A DNA stretch of 14,182 bases from the NCBI GenBank assembly GCA_017483905.1, contig JAFUUG010000357.1, positions 1 to 14,182 of the forward strand. Reading direction: 5' to 3'. This document shows, piece after piece, positions 4,142-8,736 of this stretch (positions are counted from its first letter, which is position 1; each line of letters begins with the position of its first letter). The notes under the pieces are model-generated. The model worked only from the letters and a program-made list of their open reading frames with translations, ran no database searches and was not told the origin of the DNA. A program made the translations under genes and the position numbers. This stretch comes from Bacillota bacterium (lineage in GTDB: Bacteria; Bacillota; Clostridia; Lachnospirales; CAG-274).

Positions 4142-4177
4142 GAATATAATATTTCCTTAAAACAAGGGGTGAGCACT

Positions 4178-5203
4178 ATGAAAAAAATATTGGTGGTAGA
4201 TGACAGCAGGGTGAATCTTGCGTTTGTAACGCAAATGCTGGAGGGTGAATATACCGTTGTGCAGTCAACATCTGCGATGAAAGCAATAAATATAATGCAG
4301 AAAGATGAAATAGACTTAGTCCTTCTTGATATACAGATGCCCGAAATGGACGGCATAGAGGCTATTAAGATAATGAAAAGCATAAATTCGATAAAAGATA
4401 TACCGATCATTTTCCTAACCGGAAGAACTTCAAGCGAAACGGAAATAGAATGTCTTAACTGCGGCGCGGTGGATTTTATAACGAAACCTTTTGTTCCCGA
4501 AATAGTTAAATTAAGGATAGAGAGGACACTTGAACTTGACGAATATCACAGAAACAACGAAAAGATAATAAGCGAGAAAGTGGATAACTCTCAGAAGATA
4601 AATGTAAAGCTGATAAAGAGAATGGCTGATATTATCAGAAACAGGGATTACTGGAAAAAATCGAAGGTCGATTTTGATGACATAATGAATCTTTTCCTTG
4701 CGGAAATAAAGAGTACGGGGATATACAGAGAAGAACTCAGCGAAGACGTTGTATTTGCACTTAGAAATTACGGAATACTATATGATATAGGAAAGATAAG
4801 CATTGATGAGAGAATACTTCTCAAAGAGGGAAAACTGACGGACAGTGAATTTGAAAAAATGAAAAAACACTGCGAGAGGGAAACGGAAATAGTTGAAGAT
4901 ATATTCAAGAATGAAAAATATTATCCCGCTATATCCGATTTTATGAGCTATCATCATGAAAACTGGGACGGCAGCGGATATCCTAACGGATTGAAGAAAA
5001 AGGAGATACCCGTTGCGGCAAGGATAGTTTCCATGATAGGTGAATATATGGCTCTGCGTGAGGAAAAGCCTTACAGAAATGCTTATTCGATAAAAGAGGC
5101 TATAGATATATTAAAGAGTGAGAAAGATACAAAGTATGATCCTATGCTCGTGGGGATATTCTGCGAGGCGATAAAGAAAAGAAACGATAATGATAAGGTA
5201 TGA
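4178..5203 (+). CDS. response regulator: CheY-like receiver domain fused to an HD-GYP domain with a degenerate HD motif
   Basis: I prefer ATG 4178 (AAGGGGTGA about 8 nt upstream) over the track's GTG 4169. The receiver domain shows VVDD, LLDIQMPEMDG, FLTG and ITKPF. The C-terminal domain shows YHHENWDGSGYP (the GYP signature), but YDIGK replaces HDIGK. Confidence 0.8.
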   Translation: MKKILVVDDSRVNLAFVTQMLEGEYTVVQSTSAMKAINIMQKDEIDLVLLDIQMPEMDGIEAIKIMKSINSIKDIPIIFLTGRTSSETEIECLNCGAVDFITKPFVPEIVKLRIERTLELDEYHRNNEKIISEKVDNSQKINVKLIKRMADIIRNRDYWKKSKVDFDDIMNLFLAEIKSTGIYREELSEDVVFALRNYGILYDIGKISIDERILLKEGKLTDSEFEKMKKHCERETEIVEDIFKNEKYYPAISDFMSYHHENWDGSGYPNGLKKKEIPVAARIVSMIGEYMALREEKPYRNAYSIKEAIDILKSEKDTKYDPMLVGIFCEAIKKRNDNDKV

Positions 5204-5270: not shown

Positions 5271-5299
5271 TTGACAAAATGAAAGTAATGGTATATAGT
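5271..5299 (+). promoter_or_regulatory. sigma-A type promoter for sRNA-1
   Basis: TTGACA (5271-5276), an exact 17-nt spacer, then TATAGT (5294-5299). The upstream flank is AT-rich. No ORF follows; there is only a short structured transcript that ends in a terminator. Confidence 0.6.
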
Positions 5300-5319
5300 A
5301 AAAATAGGCTTAGGCTGAT

Positions 5320-5330
5320 GCTGTTATGTA
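5320..5330 (+). repeat. direct repeat copy A (gctgttatgta), inside sRNA-1 loop
   Basis: This is an exact 11-mer also found at 5474-5484. The two transcripts are convergent, so a DNA direct repeat makes the two RNAs complementary. Confidence 0.8.
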
Positions 5331-5351
5331 CCATAAGCTAACACCAAAATA

Positions 5352-5387
5352 CCCCTCATAAGGTTGGGACTTGTGAGGGGCTTTTTT
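5352..5387. terminator. bidirectional rho-independent terminator shared by sRNA-1 and toxin-1 mRNA
   Basis: The stem pairs cccctcataag (5352-5362) with cttgtgagggg (5370-5380), with one G-U pair, around the 7-nt loop gttggga. It is followed by cttttttact on the + strand and by uauuuugg on the - strand. Confidence 0.7.
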
Positions 5388-5409
5388 ACTGTGCTTTTGT
5401 CGGTATGTG

Positions 5410-5499
5410 TTATCTGTCAAGCCACCTGCAGATGTAATGACTTACGATACCTGCTCCGACAGATACTATAAAAGCTGTTATGTATTCCAAGTCTAACAT
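5410..5499 (-). CDS. candidate type I toxin, Fst/PepA1-like small hydrophobic peptide (29 aa): MLDLEYITAFIVSVGAGIVSHYICRWLDR
   Basis: It is not in the ORF track because it is too short. It runs from ATG 5499 to TAA 5412-5410, with a weak SD (AGGAAA) 5 nt upstream. It has a single hydrophobic helix and a charged C-terminus. The I-x-A-x-(I/V)-(I/V)-S...WL-(S/D)-R layout resembles S. aureus PepA1 (MLIFVHIIAPVISGCAIAFFSYWLSRRNTK, recalled from memory) and the Fst family. Confidence 0.55.
   Translation of the reverse strand: MLDLEYITAFIVSVGAGIVSHYICRWLDR
5474..5484 (+). repeat. direct repeat copy B (gctgttatgta), complement lies in toxin-1 codons 6-9
   Basis: This is an exact copy of 5320-5330. 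Flanking partial similarity (cca, ag, ctaaca at 5493-5498 versus 5338-5343) extends the potential duplex to the UG of the toxin AUG. Confidence 0.8.
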
Positions 5500-5530
5500 C
5501 TATTTCCTGACGGAAGAAACCGACAACAAT

Positions 5531-5559
5531 ATTATACAAAATTTTCATGTTTTATGTAA
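5531..5559 (-). promoter_or_regulatory. sigma-A type promoter for toxin-1 mRNA
   Basis: On the minus strand: TTACAT (5559-5554), a 17-nt spacer, then TATAAT (5536-5531). The predicted TSS is near 5524, which gives a leader of about 25 nt. Confidence 0.5.
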
Positions 5560-5771
5560 TGCTTATTTTTTGCAGTTTATTGGCACATTTCTTTTGGAGT
5601 TTTCATTTCCCGGGAATTTAATTTCAAATAATTTATTCATTTGTTTTTAATTATTTTCTAATTATTGAATAAGGACAGTTTAATAAATGAGGTGTAATAT
5701 ATACACATAAAGAAAAACAAAGCAAATAAAAAACAAATAAATAAAGCAAATAAAATAGGGAGATGACAGTT

Positions 5772-6488
5772 ATGGCAATAGAAGTTTTTAACAGATATGA
5801 ACATAAATATATTTTAAATCAGCAGCAGTACGATGAAATGATAAAGGTAATGAATGAACATATGAATCCCGATCCTTATAACAAAGGTGGCAAGCCTTAC
5901 ACGATAACGAACATTTATTATGATACACAGGACGATCACCTTATAAGGGCTTCTCTTTCAAAACCGATATACAAGGAAAAATTAAGACTGAGAGCTTACG
6001 GAGTGCCTAAGGACGGACAGAAAGTTTTTCTGGAGATAAAGAAGAAATACAACGGTATAGTGAACAAGAGAAGAACGACACTTAAACTCGATGAGGCTTA
6101 CAAATTTGTTGGTTCGGGGGAAAAACCCCAAATAGAAAGCTATATGAACAAGCAGGTAATAAACGAGATATCGTATTTCTTAAAGGTGTATGATCTGAAG
6201 CCGAAATTATATCTTGCCTATGACAGGATAGCTTACTTTGAAAAGGGAAATGATGATCTGAGGATCTCTTTCGATCAGAATATACGTTCAAGAAGAGAAG
6301 ATGTTCAGCTTGAGATAGGAGATCACGGAAATCTTCTTCTTGAAGAGGGACAATATCTGATGGAGATAAAGACATCGCTTGCTATGCCGTTATGGCTTAC
6401 ACATACGCTTGCAAGGCTCAATCTTAAAAGACAGAGTTTTTCTAAATACGGTGCGGAATTTAAGAATACCGTAAATCAGGGTGCATAA
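5772..6488 (+). CDS. VTC-domain protein (triphosphate-tunnel / polyphosphate-polymerase-like domain)
   Basis: I prefer ATG 5772 because GGGAG (5758-5762) abuts the track's ATG 5763 with no spacing. The N-terminal FNRYEHKYIL fits the beta-1 acidic/Lys signature of tunnel-fold (CYTH/TTM) enzymes. Later features are basic beta-strands (RLRAYG, FLEIKKKYNGIVNKRR), RISFDQNI and LMEIK. The layout matches bacterial VTC-domain proteins as I remember them. Confidence 0.65.
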   Translation: MAIEVFNRYEHKYILNQQQYDEMIKVMNEHMNPDPYNKGGKPYTITNIYYDTQDDHLIRASLSKPIYKEKLRLRAYGVPKDGQKVFLEIKKKYNGIVNKRRTTLKLDEAYKFVGSGEKPQIESYMNKQVINEISYFLKVYDLKPKLYLAYDRIAYFEKGNDDLRISFDQNIRSRREDVQLEIGDHGNLLLEEGQYLMEIKTSLAMPLWLTHTLARLNLKRQSFSKYGAEFKNTVNQGA

Positions 6489-6548
6489 TGAAAAGAATAT
6501 ACAATAAAGAATATATAATAATGAGGGAAAAGAAACGGAGTGGATATC

Positions 6549-7220
6549 ATGAATGAATTATTTAACAGCATTTTAGCAAATACATCAAGTGAATTGACGG
6601 TGGTCGATTCTGTAATAACAATGGCGACGGCACTGGTATTCGGACTGGTGATAGCGTTTACTTATTATAAGACACAATCGGATGCTCTGTATCAGAGAAG
6701 TCTTTCCATAACACTTGTAATGCTGCCTGTGATACTAGCAACGATAATAACATTTGTCGGCAGCGATGTTGCAAAGGCATTCAGTCTTGCAGGTACTCTT
6801 ACGATAATCAGATTCAGAAGCGCACCCGGAGATCCTAAGGATATAGGTTTCATCTTCTTCGATATAGCGGCAGGACTTGCCTGTGGTGCGGGATTATATG
6901 GATATGGCGCAATATTTGTGATAGTTGTTTGTGCAGTTCTCTTTGCAAGTGAAAAAGTCGGTTTATTTGAAAAGAAATCTATCGAAAAGACATTGAAGAT
7001 AACTATTCCGGAAGACCTTAACTATGAGGGGGCTTTCGATGATATACTTAATAAATATACAACAAAACATACGATGATGAAGATAAAGACGACAGATCTC
7101 GGTTCTCTCTTTGAATTAAGCTATGATATATCAATGAAGAAGAATCAGAATGAACAGGAATTTCTCAATGATATAAGATGCAGGAACGGAAATCTTAATA
7201 TAATACTTTCGGTAAAATAA
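6549..7220 (+). CDS. DUF4956-like integral membrane protein (usual partner of bacterial VTC-domain proteins)
   Basis: I prefer ATG 6549 (GGAG at 6537-6540, 8-nt spacing) over the track's GTG 6540. It has four to five hydrophobic helices: VITMATALVFGLVIAFTYY, SITLVMLPVILATIITFVG, FSLAGTLTIIRF and IGFIFFDIAAGLACGAGLYGYGAIFVIVVCAVLFA. A soluble tail of about 80 aa follows. The family name is recalled, not searched. Confidence 0.6.
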   Translation: MNELFNSILANTSSELTVVDSVITMATALVFGLVIAFTYYKTQSDALYQRSLSITLVMLPVILATIITFVGSDVAKAFSLAGTLTIIRFRSAPGDPKDIGFIFFDIAAGLACGAGLYGYGAIFVIVVCAVLFASEKVGLFEKKSIEKTLKITIPEDLNYEGAFDDILNKYTTKHTMMKIKTTDLGSLFELSYDISMKKNQNEQEFLNDIRCRNGNLNIILSVK

Positions 7221-7225
7221 ATTGA

Positions 7226-7254
7226 TTGACAAGAGAGGGGAAAAGTGATATTAT
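7226..7254 (+). promoter_or_regulatory. sigma-A type promoter (extended -10) for sRNA-2
   Basis: TTGACA (7226-7231), a 17-nt spacer, then TATTAT (7249-7254). A TG at 7246-7247 gives TGnTATTAT. It starts 6 nt after the DUF4956 stop codon. Confidence 0.6.
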
Positions 7255-7266
7255 ATAAGTACAAAA

Positions 7267-7297
7267 GGAACACTGTCAAACAATAGACGGTGACCCC
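7267..7297 (+). repeat. inverted repeat, left arm (5' leader of sRNA-2)
   Basis: The left arm reads ggaacactgtcaaac-aataga-cggtgacccc. The reverse complement of 7501-7539 reads ggaacactttcaaac-ttaactacggtagg-cggtgacccc. The blocks match 14/15 and 10/10 around a variable linker. Confidence 0.8.
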
Positions 7298-7315
7298 AAG
7301 ATTTAGTTATTGAAA

Positions 7316-7355
7316 ATAACCGCAGTCATTGGTGTTGAGGGCGGTTATTTTTTTT
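7316..7355. terminator. bidirectional terminator shared by sRNA-2 and toxin-2 mRNA
   Basis: The stem pairs ataaccgc (7316-7323) with gcggttat (7341-7348), and an inner tca/tga pairing is possible. Seven T residues follow on the + strand. On the - strand the tail is the weaker uuucaauaac. The toxin-2 stop codon (7345-7347) lies inside the 3' arm. Confidence 0.6.
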
Positions 7356-7446
7356 CACTGCTATCACGCTTGCCTACTCTGTAACCGAGCTCAAAGCAAG
7401 CAAGACAAAGACTTACTAAGCCTATAAGTTCGCCGAGTGTCAGCAT
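7345..7446 (-). CDS. candidate type I toxin / holin-like small hydrophobic peptide (33 aa): MLTLGELIGLVSLCLACFELGYRVGKRDSSEKK
   Basis: It is not in the ORF track. It runs from ATG 7446 to TAA 7347-7345. A strong SD (AAGGGGGTG, G-run at 7458-7454) lies 7 nt upstream. It has one hydrophobic helix and a Lys/Arg/Glu-rich tail, the typical type I toxin format. Confidence 0.5.
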   Translation of the reverse strand: MLTLGELIGLVSLCLACFELGYRVGKRDSSEKK

Positions 7447-7500
7447 AATAACACCCCCTTTTTCATTGGAATAGATATGTAAATCACCTCCTATGAAACA

Positions 7501-7539
7501 GGGGTCACCGCCTACCGTAGTTAAGTTTGAAAGTGTTCC
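7501..7539 (-). repeat. inverted repeat, right arm (5' leader of toxin-2 mRNA)
   Basis: See 7267-7297. Because the two transcripts converge, both RNAs begin with nearly the same sequence (same sense, not complementary). Confidence 0.8.
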
Positions 7540-7545
7540 GAATTA

Positions 7546-7574
7546 AATATAGCATATATTTTGGGTAATGTCTA
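7546..7574 (-). promoter_or_regulatory. sigma-A type promoter for toxin-2 mRNA
   Basis: On the minus strand: TAGACA (7574-7569), a 17-nt spacer, then TATATT (7551-7546). The predicted TSS is near 7539, exactly where the repeat arm GGAACAC begins. Confidence 0.45.
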
Positions 7575-7680
7575 TAGGATTTATATTTCACTTTTGTTAC
7601 AGGGATATAAAGGAAATTTTATGGAAATATTCTTTAAGAGGGGTGTAATATAGGGGAAGATGAGGTATTATATAATAAAA

Positions 7681-7737: not shown

Positions 7738-7875
7738 TTAGCTTATTACATCGGAAGAGTAATCTATTTCGCCTATTACACCAAGATTGTTTCCTGTACC
7801 GTTGCTTGTGGTTACAAGGGTTTCTTCGGAAACAAATGTTACAATTTCAAATTCTGGTTTATCATAATTTTTCAT
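7738..7875 (-). CDS. unannotated small acidic peptide (45 aa): MKNYDKPEFEIVTFVSEETLVTTSNGTGNNLGVIGEIDYSSDVIS
   Basis: It is not in the ORF track. It runs from ATG 7875 to TAA 7740-7738. GGAGG lies 10 nt upstream (ggaggaaaataataaATG). It starts 24 nt after the stop of the 278-aa gene and is followed directly by the terminator. It has no Cys and no signal peptide. Confidence 0.55.
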   Translation of the reverse strand: MKNYDKPEFEIVTFVSEETLVTTSNGTGNNLGVIGEIDYSSDVIS

Positions 7876-7899: not shown

Positions 7900-8736
7900 T
7901 TATTCGAGTGAAATAAGTTCTGTCATTGATTTTGCAGCAGTATCATCAGGAACATTAGCTACTGTAACGGCAACATAGTATACGCCATCTTCTTCAGGTG
8001 CGATTATGTTACCATTTGAATCTATTATTTTTTTGTATACTACAGTTTGAGAATCGTAACTTTTATTTCCAACTGTAAATACTACACTTTCTTTAGATGA
8101 CGTGTCTGCAATCGCTATTTTTCCTATAGCATAGTATTTTTCGTTTTCGACAACAACAAAATCATTATTTTCGGAATCTTTGTAGATAACAGGGTCAAAA
8201 ATCTTATCATTTGTGATTTTGATTGTTATTTTATTTATGGTCGATTCGACCTTATTGTCGCTTGTATTTGTTCCGTCATTATATACAGTTAAATTCAATT
8301 TTCCGTCATTTGTATCAGTTGCATTAAATTCTATTTCAACTGATTTCGCTACTGTAGCTTCGGAGCTGTCGAGTTTGTATATTCTGCCGGCTTTAGCTGT
8401 AGTACCAACTAAATTGATTTTTCCAGCAGAACCAACAGGTACGGGGATGTCAATAGAACCTTGGTCTGTACTGTTACCAATTTTTATGTATTTATTTTTG
8501 TGCAAAACAACTTTACCATTTGAAAATAAAATACCTTTAAAATTATCACCAGAACTTAAAGATTCACCATCGCCACCTGTTTGTGTCCATGTAGCTGTTT
8601 TATTTGCATCTGTTACTGCATAACTAAAATATTGGTCGTAATTTTTATTATCAGCCAACACTGATATACTCATCAAAGTTAAAGTAGCACCAATTATAAT
8701 AGTTGTTACTACAGTTTTCAATAATGATTTTCTCAT
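7900..8736 (-). CDS. secreted hypothetical protein (beta-rich, Asn/Thr/Asp-rich, 278 aa)
   Basis: A strong SD is present (aaggaggtaattaaaaaATG). The signal peptide MRKSLLKTVVTTIIIGATLTLMSISVLA-DN has a basic n-region, a hydrophobic core and an A-x-A-like cleavage site. The mature part looks like two beta-sandwich modules. There is no LPXTG and I recognise no family. The gene is markedly AT-rich. Confidence 0.75.
   Translation of the reverse strand: MRKSLLKTVVTTIIIGATLTLMSISVLADNKNYDQYFSYAVTDANKTATWTQTGGDGESLSSGDNFKGILFSNGKVVLHKNKYIKIGNSTDQGSIDIPVPVGSAGKINLVGTTAKAGRIYKLDSSEATVAKSVEIEFNATDTNDGKLNLTVYNDGTNTSDNKVESTINKITIKITNDKIFDPVIYKDSENNDFVVVENEKYYAIGKIAIADTSSKESVVFTVGNKSYDSQTVVYKKIIDSNGNIIAPEEDGVYYVAVTVANVPDDTAAKSMTELISLE

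Follow-up and report, generated by a model that had tools for sequence, protein, structure and literature searches.

The window analyzed here, a whole contig of 14,182 nucleotides (JAFUUG010000357.1) from a Bacillota bacterium, contains a gap of about 290 bp between two ordinary chromosomal genes, and it is in this gap that a module of two convergent putative transcription units was located. The surrounding genes are core chromosomal ones, including S1, an amidohydrolase and SpoIIE close by and TilS, HPRT and FtsH farther downstream, and a megablast comparison of plasmids with the whole window gave no match and no sign that the window is plasmid-borne. The GC content is 38%. With two other window proteins, identical metagenome contigs were found in two DNA assemblies, ENA ERZ28654209 and Logan SRR12529325; they show zero sequence variation and therefore carry no covariation signal, and no gene is called in the intergenic region of either. 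A metagenome scan with the VTC protein encoded in the window retrieved only distant relatives (≤72% identity), none of them with synteny or a toxin gene nearby, which makes an empty-site comparison impossible. The locus is absent from close relatives of the host, so that within-lineage covariation cannot be drawn on either.

The elements of the module, in the order of their coordinates, are the following.

5271-5299, plus strand: putative promoter of the antitoxin sRNA, TTGACA-17-TATAGT, 11 of 12 consensus positions, the best site of the region
5306-5387, plus strand: predicted antitoxin sRNA of about 82 nt, equivalent of RNA II, its ends inferred from the -10 box and the terminator T-run
5320-5343, plus strand: sRNA copy of the repeat, an exact 11-mer (5320-5330) followed by an imperfect extension (TAAG / CTAAC)
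5344-5524, minus strand: predicted toxin mRNA of about 181 nt, equivalent of RNA I, both ends inferred
5352-5380, both strands: shared bidirectional intrinsic terminator hairpin, with an A-rich left flank and a T-run on the right
5399-5404, minus strand: ACCGAC just 3' of the stop codon, predicted partner of GUCGGU at the mRNA 5' end (5519-5524)
5410-5499, minus strand: putative toxin ORF of 29 aa, MLDLEYITAFIVSVGAGIVSHYICRWLDR, with its stop codon at 5410-5412
5474-5498, minus strand: toxin-gene copy of the repeat, codons 1-9, predicted target of the sRNA
5503-5508, minus strand: Shine-Dalgarno sequence (SD) AGGAAA in a potential 5' stem-loop (GUUUCUU / AGGAAAU)
5531-5560, minus strand: putative toxin promoter, TTACAT-17-TATAAT, 10 of 12 consensus positions

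Both promoters proposed in the initial annotation were recovered, the plus-strand site as described and the minus-strand site in a slightly different reading, the scan having scored it as ATTACA-18-TATAAT (5560-5531). At the level of sequence these are the two top-scoring promoter-like sites of the region and they face each other, which predicts convergent transcription of the two units; the region as a whole is not enriched in promoter-like sites (8 found vs 5.1 ± 2.7 expected). The hairpin that the two units had been proposed to share is present together with its T-run, with folding energies of -20.4 and -16.5 kcal/mol on the two strands, a z-score of about -3.6 to -3.7 on both and none of 200 shuffled sequences as stable. 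Overlap of the two predicted transcripts yields about 44 bp of perfect complementarity. By inspection, a YUNR U-turn is absent from the terminator loop of the toxin strand (UCCCAAC) and the loop of the sRNA terminator (GUUGGGA) includes UUGG; the motif does not occur in every homologue and is thus not strictly defining (PMC7472228).

The 29-residue ORF on the minus strand is present as claimed and intact, with all near-invariant residues of its family kept (F10, S13, A16, Y22, I23, C24, W26, L27, and D28). A hydrophobic stretch from I7 to I23 precedes W26, which is followed by L-D-R, an unusually short tail, and inside the transmembrane segment S13-V-G-A-G17 forms a P/D/S/T-xxx-G(C) motif, P/D/S/T-xxx-G being accepted as the natural motif (PMC7472228). 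The residue aligned on Pro11 of Fst is Ser in this peptide, and a Pro11-to-Ser change in pAD1 Fst is reported to cause loss of toxicity (PMC6811638). Position 25 is Arg, whereas Lys is found there in 89 of 92 relatives. Translation would start at an ATG behind a weak SD (AGGAAA), below the family norm; many relatives have TTG or GTG with a strong SD. An overlapping ORF of 43 aa (5417-5548, minus strand) was rejected as a gene because its ATG lies within the promoter spacer and it has no conserved counterpart. Short ORFs are abundant in the region.

Relatives of the peptide, which share the motif SxxAG…[HY]YIC[KR]WLD, were found at ≥512 loci in a scan of representative genomes, in 269 plasmid records by tblastn (best E = 4e-5 in 7.3 Gb) and in 98 viral contigs in a viral scan. 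The plasmid records are mostly from Enterococcus, Streptococcus, and Staphylococcus, and S. aureus pSK1 and a Megamonas coding sequence named as an Fst family toxin are among them. In the alignment of 91 members (A3) the Trp is invariant in 91/91, A16 is invariant and S13 nearly so, and among the 92 peptides used for residue counts 90 have the Cys (C24) before K/R-W. All six Leu codons occur at the invariant Leu, and synonymous changes are seen at the conserved Tyr, Ile, Lys, and Asp, a pattern that indicates selection acting on the protein.

The earlier suggestion that the peptide resembles Fst-type toxins was borne out by profile-profile comparison. Aligned with six toxins annotated as Fst in RefSeq, the A3 profile gave a probability of 87.5% (E = 3.6e-6) or 94.3% (E = 1e-7) in hhalign, depending on how columns were handled; among the reversed and the 200 column-shuffled controls, the maximum score was 15.4 vs a real score of 33.2, which 0/200 of the shuffled profiles reached. 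The alignment is gapless and places SxxxG on PxxxG with W-L-D in register, so that S13 and G17 correspond to P11 and G15 of pAD1-type Fst and the distance to W/V is 8 residues in both. One homologue, WP_208854436.1 from Megamonas funiformis, is named an Fst family toxin in RefSeq and scores 29.2 bits with NF033608, above the cut-off of 26.

Curated models largely miss this family. The Pfam Fst_toxin model, proposed earlier as a test of the window peptide, does not match it, and in a search of all Pfam and NCBIfam models, Fst models, Ldr_toxin, and NF033608 included, nothing was retrieved for it at E ≤ 10. Across the family, only 2/91 members reach NF033608 at E ≤ 0.01 and 0/91 reach Pfam Fst_toxin; 9/91 match Ldr_toxin weakly. 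The C. difficile type I toxin model NF047374 is matched weakly by 18/91 members (best E = 2.4e-5, all far below the 60-bit cut-off) and does not match the window peptide, for which membership in that family is not claimed. A profile search of the PDB retrieved no solved structure, Fst and PepA1 included. None of the 4227 Rfam models reached its gathering threshold with either predicted RNA; below threshold the best hits were unrelated sRNAs (E = 0.05-0.5), and the sRNA had no protein-family match. A literature search for the peptide motif, outside the Fozo 2010 supplements and Weaver 2009, found no paper. The initial annotation had remarked that such loci are not routinely annotated in Clostridia; the annotation gap stands, but the locus does not extend the biological range, as the prediction of Fst-like toxins in Clostridiales dates from 2010 (PMC2887945, PMC6563280).

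The anatomy of the locus was compared across about 90-95 members of the family. As judged from tblastn and the genome scan, relatives have the same layout of toxin ORF, terminator, repeat copy, and antisense promoter. An antisense promoter just beyond the repeat is found at 87% of the loci vs 1% on the wrong strand, and a toxin promoter scoring ≥9.5/12 at 71% vs 22% when the other strand is read. Exact repeats joining the start region to the 3' flank were measured at about 95 loci; the longest per locus has a median length of 12 nt and usually lies 0-20 nt past the start codon, as in the window, compared with 7 nt in reverse-complement and upstream controls. For non-cognate loci the figure is 6 nt, and in 85% of cases the longest repeat is that of the locus itself, which means that the repeat co-varies locus by locus. 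This comparative evidence is the strongest argument that the predicted sRNA-mRNA pairing exceeds chance.

In the window itself, the exact 11-nt direct repeat reported earlier, GCTGTTATGTA, is found at 5320-5330 and 5474-5484, close to the family median of 12 nt. Through it the predicted sRNA is complementary to the toxin start region, with pairing of 11 + 4 + 5 bp from the G of the AUG to codon 9. The interaction energy, proposed as a test against shuffled controls, is better than these by both methods used: with RNAduplex the 5' part of the sRNA and the 5' part of the mRNA give -33.5 kcal/mol vs -23 ± 3.2 for shuffled sequences (2-3 per 1000 as good), and in a cofold calculation with competing intramolecular structure the ddG is -6.3 vs -2.7 ± 1.7 (11/300 as good), a modest significance. 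The 5' hairpin of the sRNA that was proposed to present the 11-mer as a kissing loop found no statistical support, its -8.0 kcal/mol being no better than shuffled sequence gives (z = -0.03); in par, pairing begins at the terminator loops (PMC7472228).

The full-length toxin mRNA is predicted to be unusually compact, with an MFE of -53.2 kcal/mol vs -38.2 ± 4.1 for shuffled sequences (z = -3.69). In the MFE fold, a single-sequence prediction, GUCGGU at the 5' end pairs with ACCGAC past the stop codon to form a 5'-3' clamp. Taken alone, the 5' stem-loops of the window locus are not better than shuffles. The SD has a pairing probability of 0.85 vs 0.66 ± 0.19 in controls, with a local fold no better than shuffles, and family-wide the probability is 0.72 vs 0.53 (p = 1.4e-9).

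With homologues that share the layout and a family profile that aligns to Fst, the reading of the locus as a par/Fst-style type I module gains support, and we consider it very probable, from these sequence comparisons, that the locus is a chromosomal par-like (Fst/RNA II) type I toxin-antitoxin module. The minus-strand promoter would give a toxin mRNA of about 180 nt encoding a single-helix membrane peptide of 29 residues in the Fst/Ldr superfamily, and the plus-strand promoter a convergent antitoxin sRNA of about 80 nt. Since the bidirectional terminator is common to both RNAs, their 3' ends would be fully complementary, and the direct repeat would add a second complementary patch over the toxin start codon and codons 1-9. 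Pairing at this patch would block translation initiation, and the compact mRNA fold, in which base pairs cover the SD and the AUG and the 5' end is joined to the 3' UTR, may add repression. On loss of the sRNA the peptide would be made and insert into the membrane, with growth arrest as the presumed outcome.

The features agree with the family definition in the list of par-like locus features given by PMC7472228, and the closest well-known counterpart is the founding system, pAD1 par of Enterococcus faecalis (Fst RNA I / RNA II). The two have in common convergent promoters and a shared bidirectional terminator, a direct repeat that gives the sRNA complementarity to the toxin initiation region beyond the stretch where the transcripts overlap, predicted sequestration of the SD in the mRNA, and a toxin about 30 residues long that combines a transmembrane helix and an xxxG motif with W/V-L-D and a charged end. 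They differ in several respects. The window locus is chromosomal whereas pAD1 par is plasmid-borne; it has one exact 11-nt repeat with an imperfect extension, mostly inside codons 1-9, in place of the two discrete repeats DRa and DRb and of a position over the SD; and a 5'-3' clamp is predicted where the upstream helix of pAD1 (5'-UH) sequesters the extreme 5' end of the mRNA. The window peptide has Ser-xxx-Gly instead of the Pro-xxx-Gly of pAD1 Fst, the Cys before K/R-W that is nearly invariant in its family, and a very short D-R tail. The terminator loop without YUNR and a peptide missed by the Pfam Fst model and NF033608 also set the window apart from pAD1, and the predicted sRNA has about 82 nt compared with about 40 nt in the review (PMC7472228).

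In staphylococcal SprA1/SprA1as (PepA1), the sRNA is encoded 3' of the toxin gene, overlaps it at the 3' end only and acts via a separate 5' patch (PMC8594479), an arrangement shared by the staphylococcal Fst-like systems and predicted for the window locus. The Fst-like locus of pSK1, retrieved by tblastn with the window peptide, has the same layout, although the staphylococcal matches are weak (E about 3) and their C-terminal motifs differ. The Clostridioides difficile type I toxins (NF047374) are likewise small, hydrophobic, under antisense control and from Clostridia, but have about 50 residues (51 model positions) compared with 29 in the window peptide.

The plainest alternative is a chance assembly, in which the hairpin does no more than terminate the upstream response-regulator gene, and ORF, promoters, and repeat occur together by coincidence in AT-rich intergenic DNA. 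The unremarkable count of promoter-like sites and the ready supply of short ORFs fit this, as does the hairpin's position 150 nt downstream of the regulator gene, which it could also terminate. Set against this are the significance of the peptide homologues in the tblastn search, the recurrence of the full layout at hundreds of loci with no control that matches, and the codon-level signature of selection on the protein; the repeat, promoter, and codon comparisons leave the chance explanation effectively refuted as judged from sequence, and hardly credible. The locus might instead be what a former mobile-element insertion left of a type I module, an inactive relic that has lost its expression or function. 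The lack of synteny and of nearby toxin genes among the VTC relatives is consistent with lineage-specific acquisition, and the Arg at position 25 and the weak SD could be signs of decay, but the ORF is intact with its near-invariant residues, both promoters are near-consensus, the terminator is intact and the 11-mer is exact and of nearly median length, and we regard a relic as very unlikely.

Slightly less improbable, though still unlikely, is that the gene, controlled by an antisense RNA, codes for a conserved small membrane protein with no toxicity in its host, such as one that modulates a membrane process, and that the par-like layout serves ordinary regulation rather than addiction or growth arrest. 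The locus is among core chromosomal genes, and plasmid stabilization therefore cannot be its role; a Ser takes the place of the Pro that is essential for Fst toxicity, and the functions of chromosomal Fst homologues are largely obscure (PMC7472228). Yet small plasmids and viral contigs commonly carry members of the same peptide family, which fits an addiction-type function, tight repression in several layers as predicted here (antisense, SD sequestration, compact fold) is typical of genes whose expression does harm, and characterized members of the superfamily are toxic when over-expressed (PMC7472228, PMC6811638).

Understanding of how such systems work is unchanged by this locus. The probable module is an ordinary one of the well-known Fst/par type. 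Its value is mainly one of annotation: an "intergenic" stretch of 290 bp holds predicted genes for a toxin and an RNA antitoxin that gene callers and curated models skip. About 98% of this peptide family, which abounds in gut Firmicutes and in their plasmids and phages, escapes the same models, and type I toxin-antitoxin content is consequently under-counted there in a systematic way. The locus-specific repeats offer a ready set of orthogonal sRNA/mRNA pairs, and the conserved Ser and Cys are natural variants for probing which residues of Fst-type peptides are important in toxicity.

A broader reading, which we put forward tentatively and hold to be somewhat doubtful, is that the window locus is one member of a very large and formally undescribed Fst subfamily (Ser-xxx-Gly, near-invariant Cys, [HY]YIC[KR]WLD) that could, among gut anaerobes, be the leading type I toxin-antitoxin family. 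A link through it between the Fst, Ldr, and C. difficile families is also conceivable, because its members weakly match all three sets of models. Such a subfamily would span Lachnospiraceae, Oscillospiraceae, Negativicutes, and Erysipelotrichia, with copies on chromosomes, on small plasmids, and on phage-like contigs, often arranged in tandem, and Pfam, NCBIfam, and Rfam would hardly register it. Among the closest known counterparts of the window peptide are [HY]YIC[KR]WLD peptides encoded on plasmids and chromosomes of gut Firmicutes, which belong to the same peptide subfamily (42-77% identity) and have the same locus anatomy with a locus-specific repeat and an antisense promoter; examples are those of the uncultured rumen and gut plasmids pRGI00989 and pTRACA41, the M. 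funiformis protein mentioned above, and peptides on plasmids of Mediterraneibacter gnavus, Mogibacterium neglectum, Ligilactobacillus salivarius, and Enterococcus mundtii. These listed relatives are mostly plasmid-borne, whereas the window copy lies between core chromosomal genes.

The region between a response-regulator/HD-GYP gene and a VTC-domain gene, read in the initial annotation as a type I toxin-antitoxin module of the kind found at par, the Fst (RNA I)/RNA II locus of Enterococcus faecalis plasmid pAD1, contains every element that was listed for it:

4169-5203, response-regulator/HD-GYP gene, one flank of the region
5271-5299, plus strand, promoter TTGACA-17-TATAGT (11/12 consensus positions)
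5320-5330 and 5474-5484, exact 11-nt direct repeat
5352-5380, terminator hairpin and T-run, between the two promoters
5410..5499, minus strand, putative toxin ORF of 29 aa, MLDLEYITAFIVSVGAGIVSHYICRWLDR
5560..5531, minus strand, promoter with a TATAAT site (10/12 consensus positions)
5763-6488, VTC-domain gene, other flank of the region

The two promoters are convergent and are the top two promoter-like sites of the region, in which the count of such sites shows no excess over expectation. The hairpin reaches -20.4 and -16.5 kcal/mol on the two strands (z ~ -3.6), a stability equalled by 0/200 shuffles. Because the transcripts would converge, a direct repeat in the DNA gives complementarity between the predicted sRNA (5306-5387, plus strand) and codons 6-9 of the predicted toxin mRNA (5344-5524, minus strand); the pairing amounts to 11 + 4 + 5 bp, with imperfect matches beside the 11-mer carrying it to the start codon. 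The module is present in the window as a single copy, and its repeat begins 15 nt past the start codon and 79 nt past the stop codon, both family-typical.

The proposed sRNA-mRNA interaction was better than in shuffled controls, with an RNAduplex energy between the 5′ parts of the two RNAs of -33.5 kcal/mol against -23 ± 3.2 (equalled by 2-3 of 1000 dinucleotide shuffles) and, when competing intramolecular structure is allowed, a pairing gain of -6.3 kcal/mol against -2.7 ± 1.7 (equalled by 11/300). The full toxin mRNA also folds more stably than its shuffles (-53.2 vs -38.2 ± 4.1 kcal/mol, z = -3.69), with the AUG predicted to be paired and the 5′ end clamped to ACCGAC directly past the stop codon. 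Pairing of the SD in the predicted 5′ UTR is 0.85, compared with 0.66 ± 0.19 in controls; the mRNA 5′ stem-loop folded in isolation is not distinguishable from shuffles. The 5′ hairpin of the sRNA, earlier proposed to present a kissing loop, is no different from shuffled sequence (z = -0.03). Taken by itself, this locus makes the module reading suggestive but not proven.

Relatives of the peptide are numerous. A tblastn search against 72,556 plasmids matched 269 records (best E = 4e-5), chiefly from Enterococcus, Streptococcus and Staphylococcus, including S. aureus pSK1 and a Megamonas CDS labelled in RefSeq as "type I toxin-antitoxin system Fst family toxin". All ten plasmid loci inspected by reading share one layout, in the order promoter, SD, short ORF ending ...CKWLD..., terminator, copy of the start region, and reverse-strand promoter. 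The PLSDB gene table, which is incomplete, shows no CDS at the toxin position of RefSeq-annotated plasmids from M. gnavus, Mogibacterium and Amedibacterium. When one genome per species was scanned, at least 512 loci were confirmed; the best 80 come almost entirely from Clostridia (Lachnospiraceae, Oscillospiraceae and others), Negativicutes and Erysipelotrichia. IMG/VR added 98 further loci on viral contigs. A few matches also occur in MAGs labelled as non-Firmicutes, namely Senegalimassilia and Eggerthellaceae (both Coriobacteriia), Spirochaetia and Tenericutes (L039, L088, L075 and L080); the peptide of the Spirochaetia copy is identical to that of Holdemanella copies, which points to binning contamination or a mobile element. 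We also noticed tandem arrays of three Fst-like modules each in several genomes, for example:

2997-3928 of L028, a Phascolarctobacterium MAG
2427-3386 of L048, an Anaerotignum MAG
336-1421 of L063, a Clostridia MAG

The tandem copies have diverged peptide N-termini and a separate repeat each, which suggests that modules were duplicated locally and that their sRNA/mRNA specificities then diversified.

The anatomy of the locus was then examined over about 95 loci. Exact repeats shared by the start-codon zone and the 3′ flank reach a median maximum length of 12 nt, compared with 7 nt in each of the reverse-complement and upstream controls; 74% of loci have one of 10 nt or longer, compared with 4% for the reverse-complement and 10% for the upstream control. 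When the 3′ flank is taken from another locus the median falls to 6 nt, and in 85% of cases the repeat is longer in the locus's own flank than in 12 random non-cognate ones; the repeat sequence thus varies between loci and stays matched within each, which is the mark of two RNAs co-evolving as a pair. With promoters called at 9.5 or more of 12, an antisense promoter lies just past the repeat copy on the reverse strand in 87% of loci, compared with 1% on the forward strand, and a toxin promoter was called in 71% versus 22%. SD pairing in the predicted 5′ UTR is 0.72 against 0.53 in controls, which 86% of loci exceed (p = 1.4e-9). Synonymous variation is seen at conserved residues, with all six codons in use for the invariant Leu, and shows that the peptide is under selection. 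Apparently about half of the family toxins in the genome loci (L001-L090) start with TTG or GTG, preceded by a strong SD of the GGAGG type, resembling pAD1 fst with its GUG start. The window copy has an ATG start and a weak AGGAAA SD; an in-frame TTG at its codon 4 would give the family-typical N-terminus M-EYITAF.

Fst/RNAII loci are defined by promoters that converge, a terminator acting in both directions, direct repeats that span the initiation region, a 5′ stem-loop covering the SD and a helix that shields the 5′ end; their toxins have a transmembrane helix, the motif P/D/S/T-xxx-G and, ahead of a charged tail, a conserved Trp (Weaver 2020 review, PMC7472228). The window locus shows the first three of these locus features and its peptide shows both motifs, in keeping with the par-like layout originally proposed; for the SD stem-loop the support is family-wide. 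The YUNR motif, which is not universal (PMC7472228), is absent at the window locus. The suggested Pfam Fst_toxin search returned no match for the window peptide, nor did NCBIfam; among 91 aligned relatives Fst_toxin matched none and NF033608 was reached by two, with weak sub-threshold matches to Ldr_toxin (9/91) and to the C. difficile type I toxin model NF047374 (18/91). These weak matches to NCBIfam Fst, NF047374 and Pfam Ldr_toxin hint at a connection between these toxin families. Profile-profile comparison of the 91-member alignment with six RefSeq-annotated plasmid Fst toxins gave an ungapped alignment (probability 87.5-94.3%, E = 3.6e-6 to 1e-7) placing S13xxxG17 on PxxxG and W-L-D on the W/V-L-D of Fst; its score of 33.2 compares with a maximum of 15.4 for the reversed and 200 column-shuffled controls. 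Because of the feature tests and this comparison, we file the window locus, on sequence grounds, as a divergent subfamily within Fst/RNAII.

By analogy with par, we infer that the fully complementary terminator stem-loops would make the first contact between the two RNAs and that pairing would then extend to the repeat, occluding the start codon and early codons. Until then the mRNA's own fold would hold translation silent, and once the sRNA was lost or diluted the membrane peptide could be made. A caveat is that a Pro11-to-Ser change inactivated pAD1 Fst (PMC6811638) and the window peptide is naturally of the Ser type, so that its toxicity is putative.

The window is chromosomal, carrying genes for an S1-domain protein, SseB, two amidohydrolases, a pseudouridine synthase and SpoIIE, and plasmid addiction is therefore not the role of this module; the functions of chromosomal Fst homologues are described as mostly obscure (PMC7472228). 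Identical contigs in public metagenome assemblies extend to TilS, HPRT and FtsH farther downstream, and on those identical contigs that cover the toxin region the intergenic stretch is free of gene calls. Relatives of the VTC protein (up to 72% identity) show neither synteny nor a toxin nearby. Fst-like sequences were reported from Clostridiales (C. bolteae, C. asparagiforme) in 2010 (PMC2887945, PMC6563280) and commensal Clostridia are among the hosts in the 2020 review (PMC7472228), so the module joins a type known in Clostridia. What is modestly new is how large the [HY]YIC[KR]WLD subfamily is and how nearly invisible. Its motif occurs in no paper of the literature library searched.

A second candidate small-toxin module lies at 7226-7580 of the window. 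Its elements are listed here together with other features of the window:

7226-7254, plus strand, near-consensus promoter (11/12 with TG), aimed into the 3′ end of the 33-aa ORF
7250-7279, minus strand, promoter TTGACA-18-TATAAT (12/12)
7446..7345, minus strand, 33-aa ORF MLTLGELIGLVSLCLACFELGYRVGKRDSSEKK behind a strong SD, hydrophobic in its N-terminal part and charged in its tail
7574..7546, promoter-like site upstream of the 33-aa ORF
7738-7875, minus strand, 45-aa ORF MKNYDKPEFEIVTFVSEETLVTTSNGTGNNLGVIGEIDYSSDVIS with a good SD
5602-5621, palindrome TTCATTTCCCGGGAATTTAA, upstream of the VTC gene and outside the Fst-like toxin-antitoxin module

The 33-aa ORF is followed immediately 3′ of its stop codon by a hairpin, has no Pfam or NCBIfam match, and gave by tblastn only weak matches to Lachnospira eligens megaplasmids (E = 0.2). 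The orientation of the 7226-7254 promoter is as expected for a 3′-overlapping antisense RNA. It overlaps the 7250-7279 promoter face to face, and the transcript of the latter would be antisense to the 3′ end of the DUF4956 gene (6540-7220). The 45-aa ORF, which has no family match, sits immediately downstream of a gene (7900-8736) whose 278-aa product has no assigned family and a signal-peptide-like hydrophobic N-terminus; a hairpin terminator follows the ORF. The palindrome could be an operator site.
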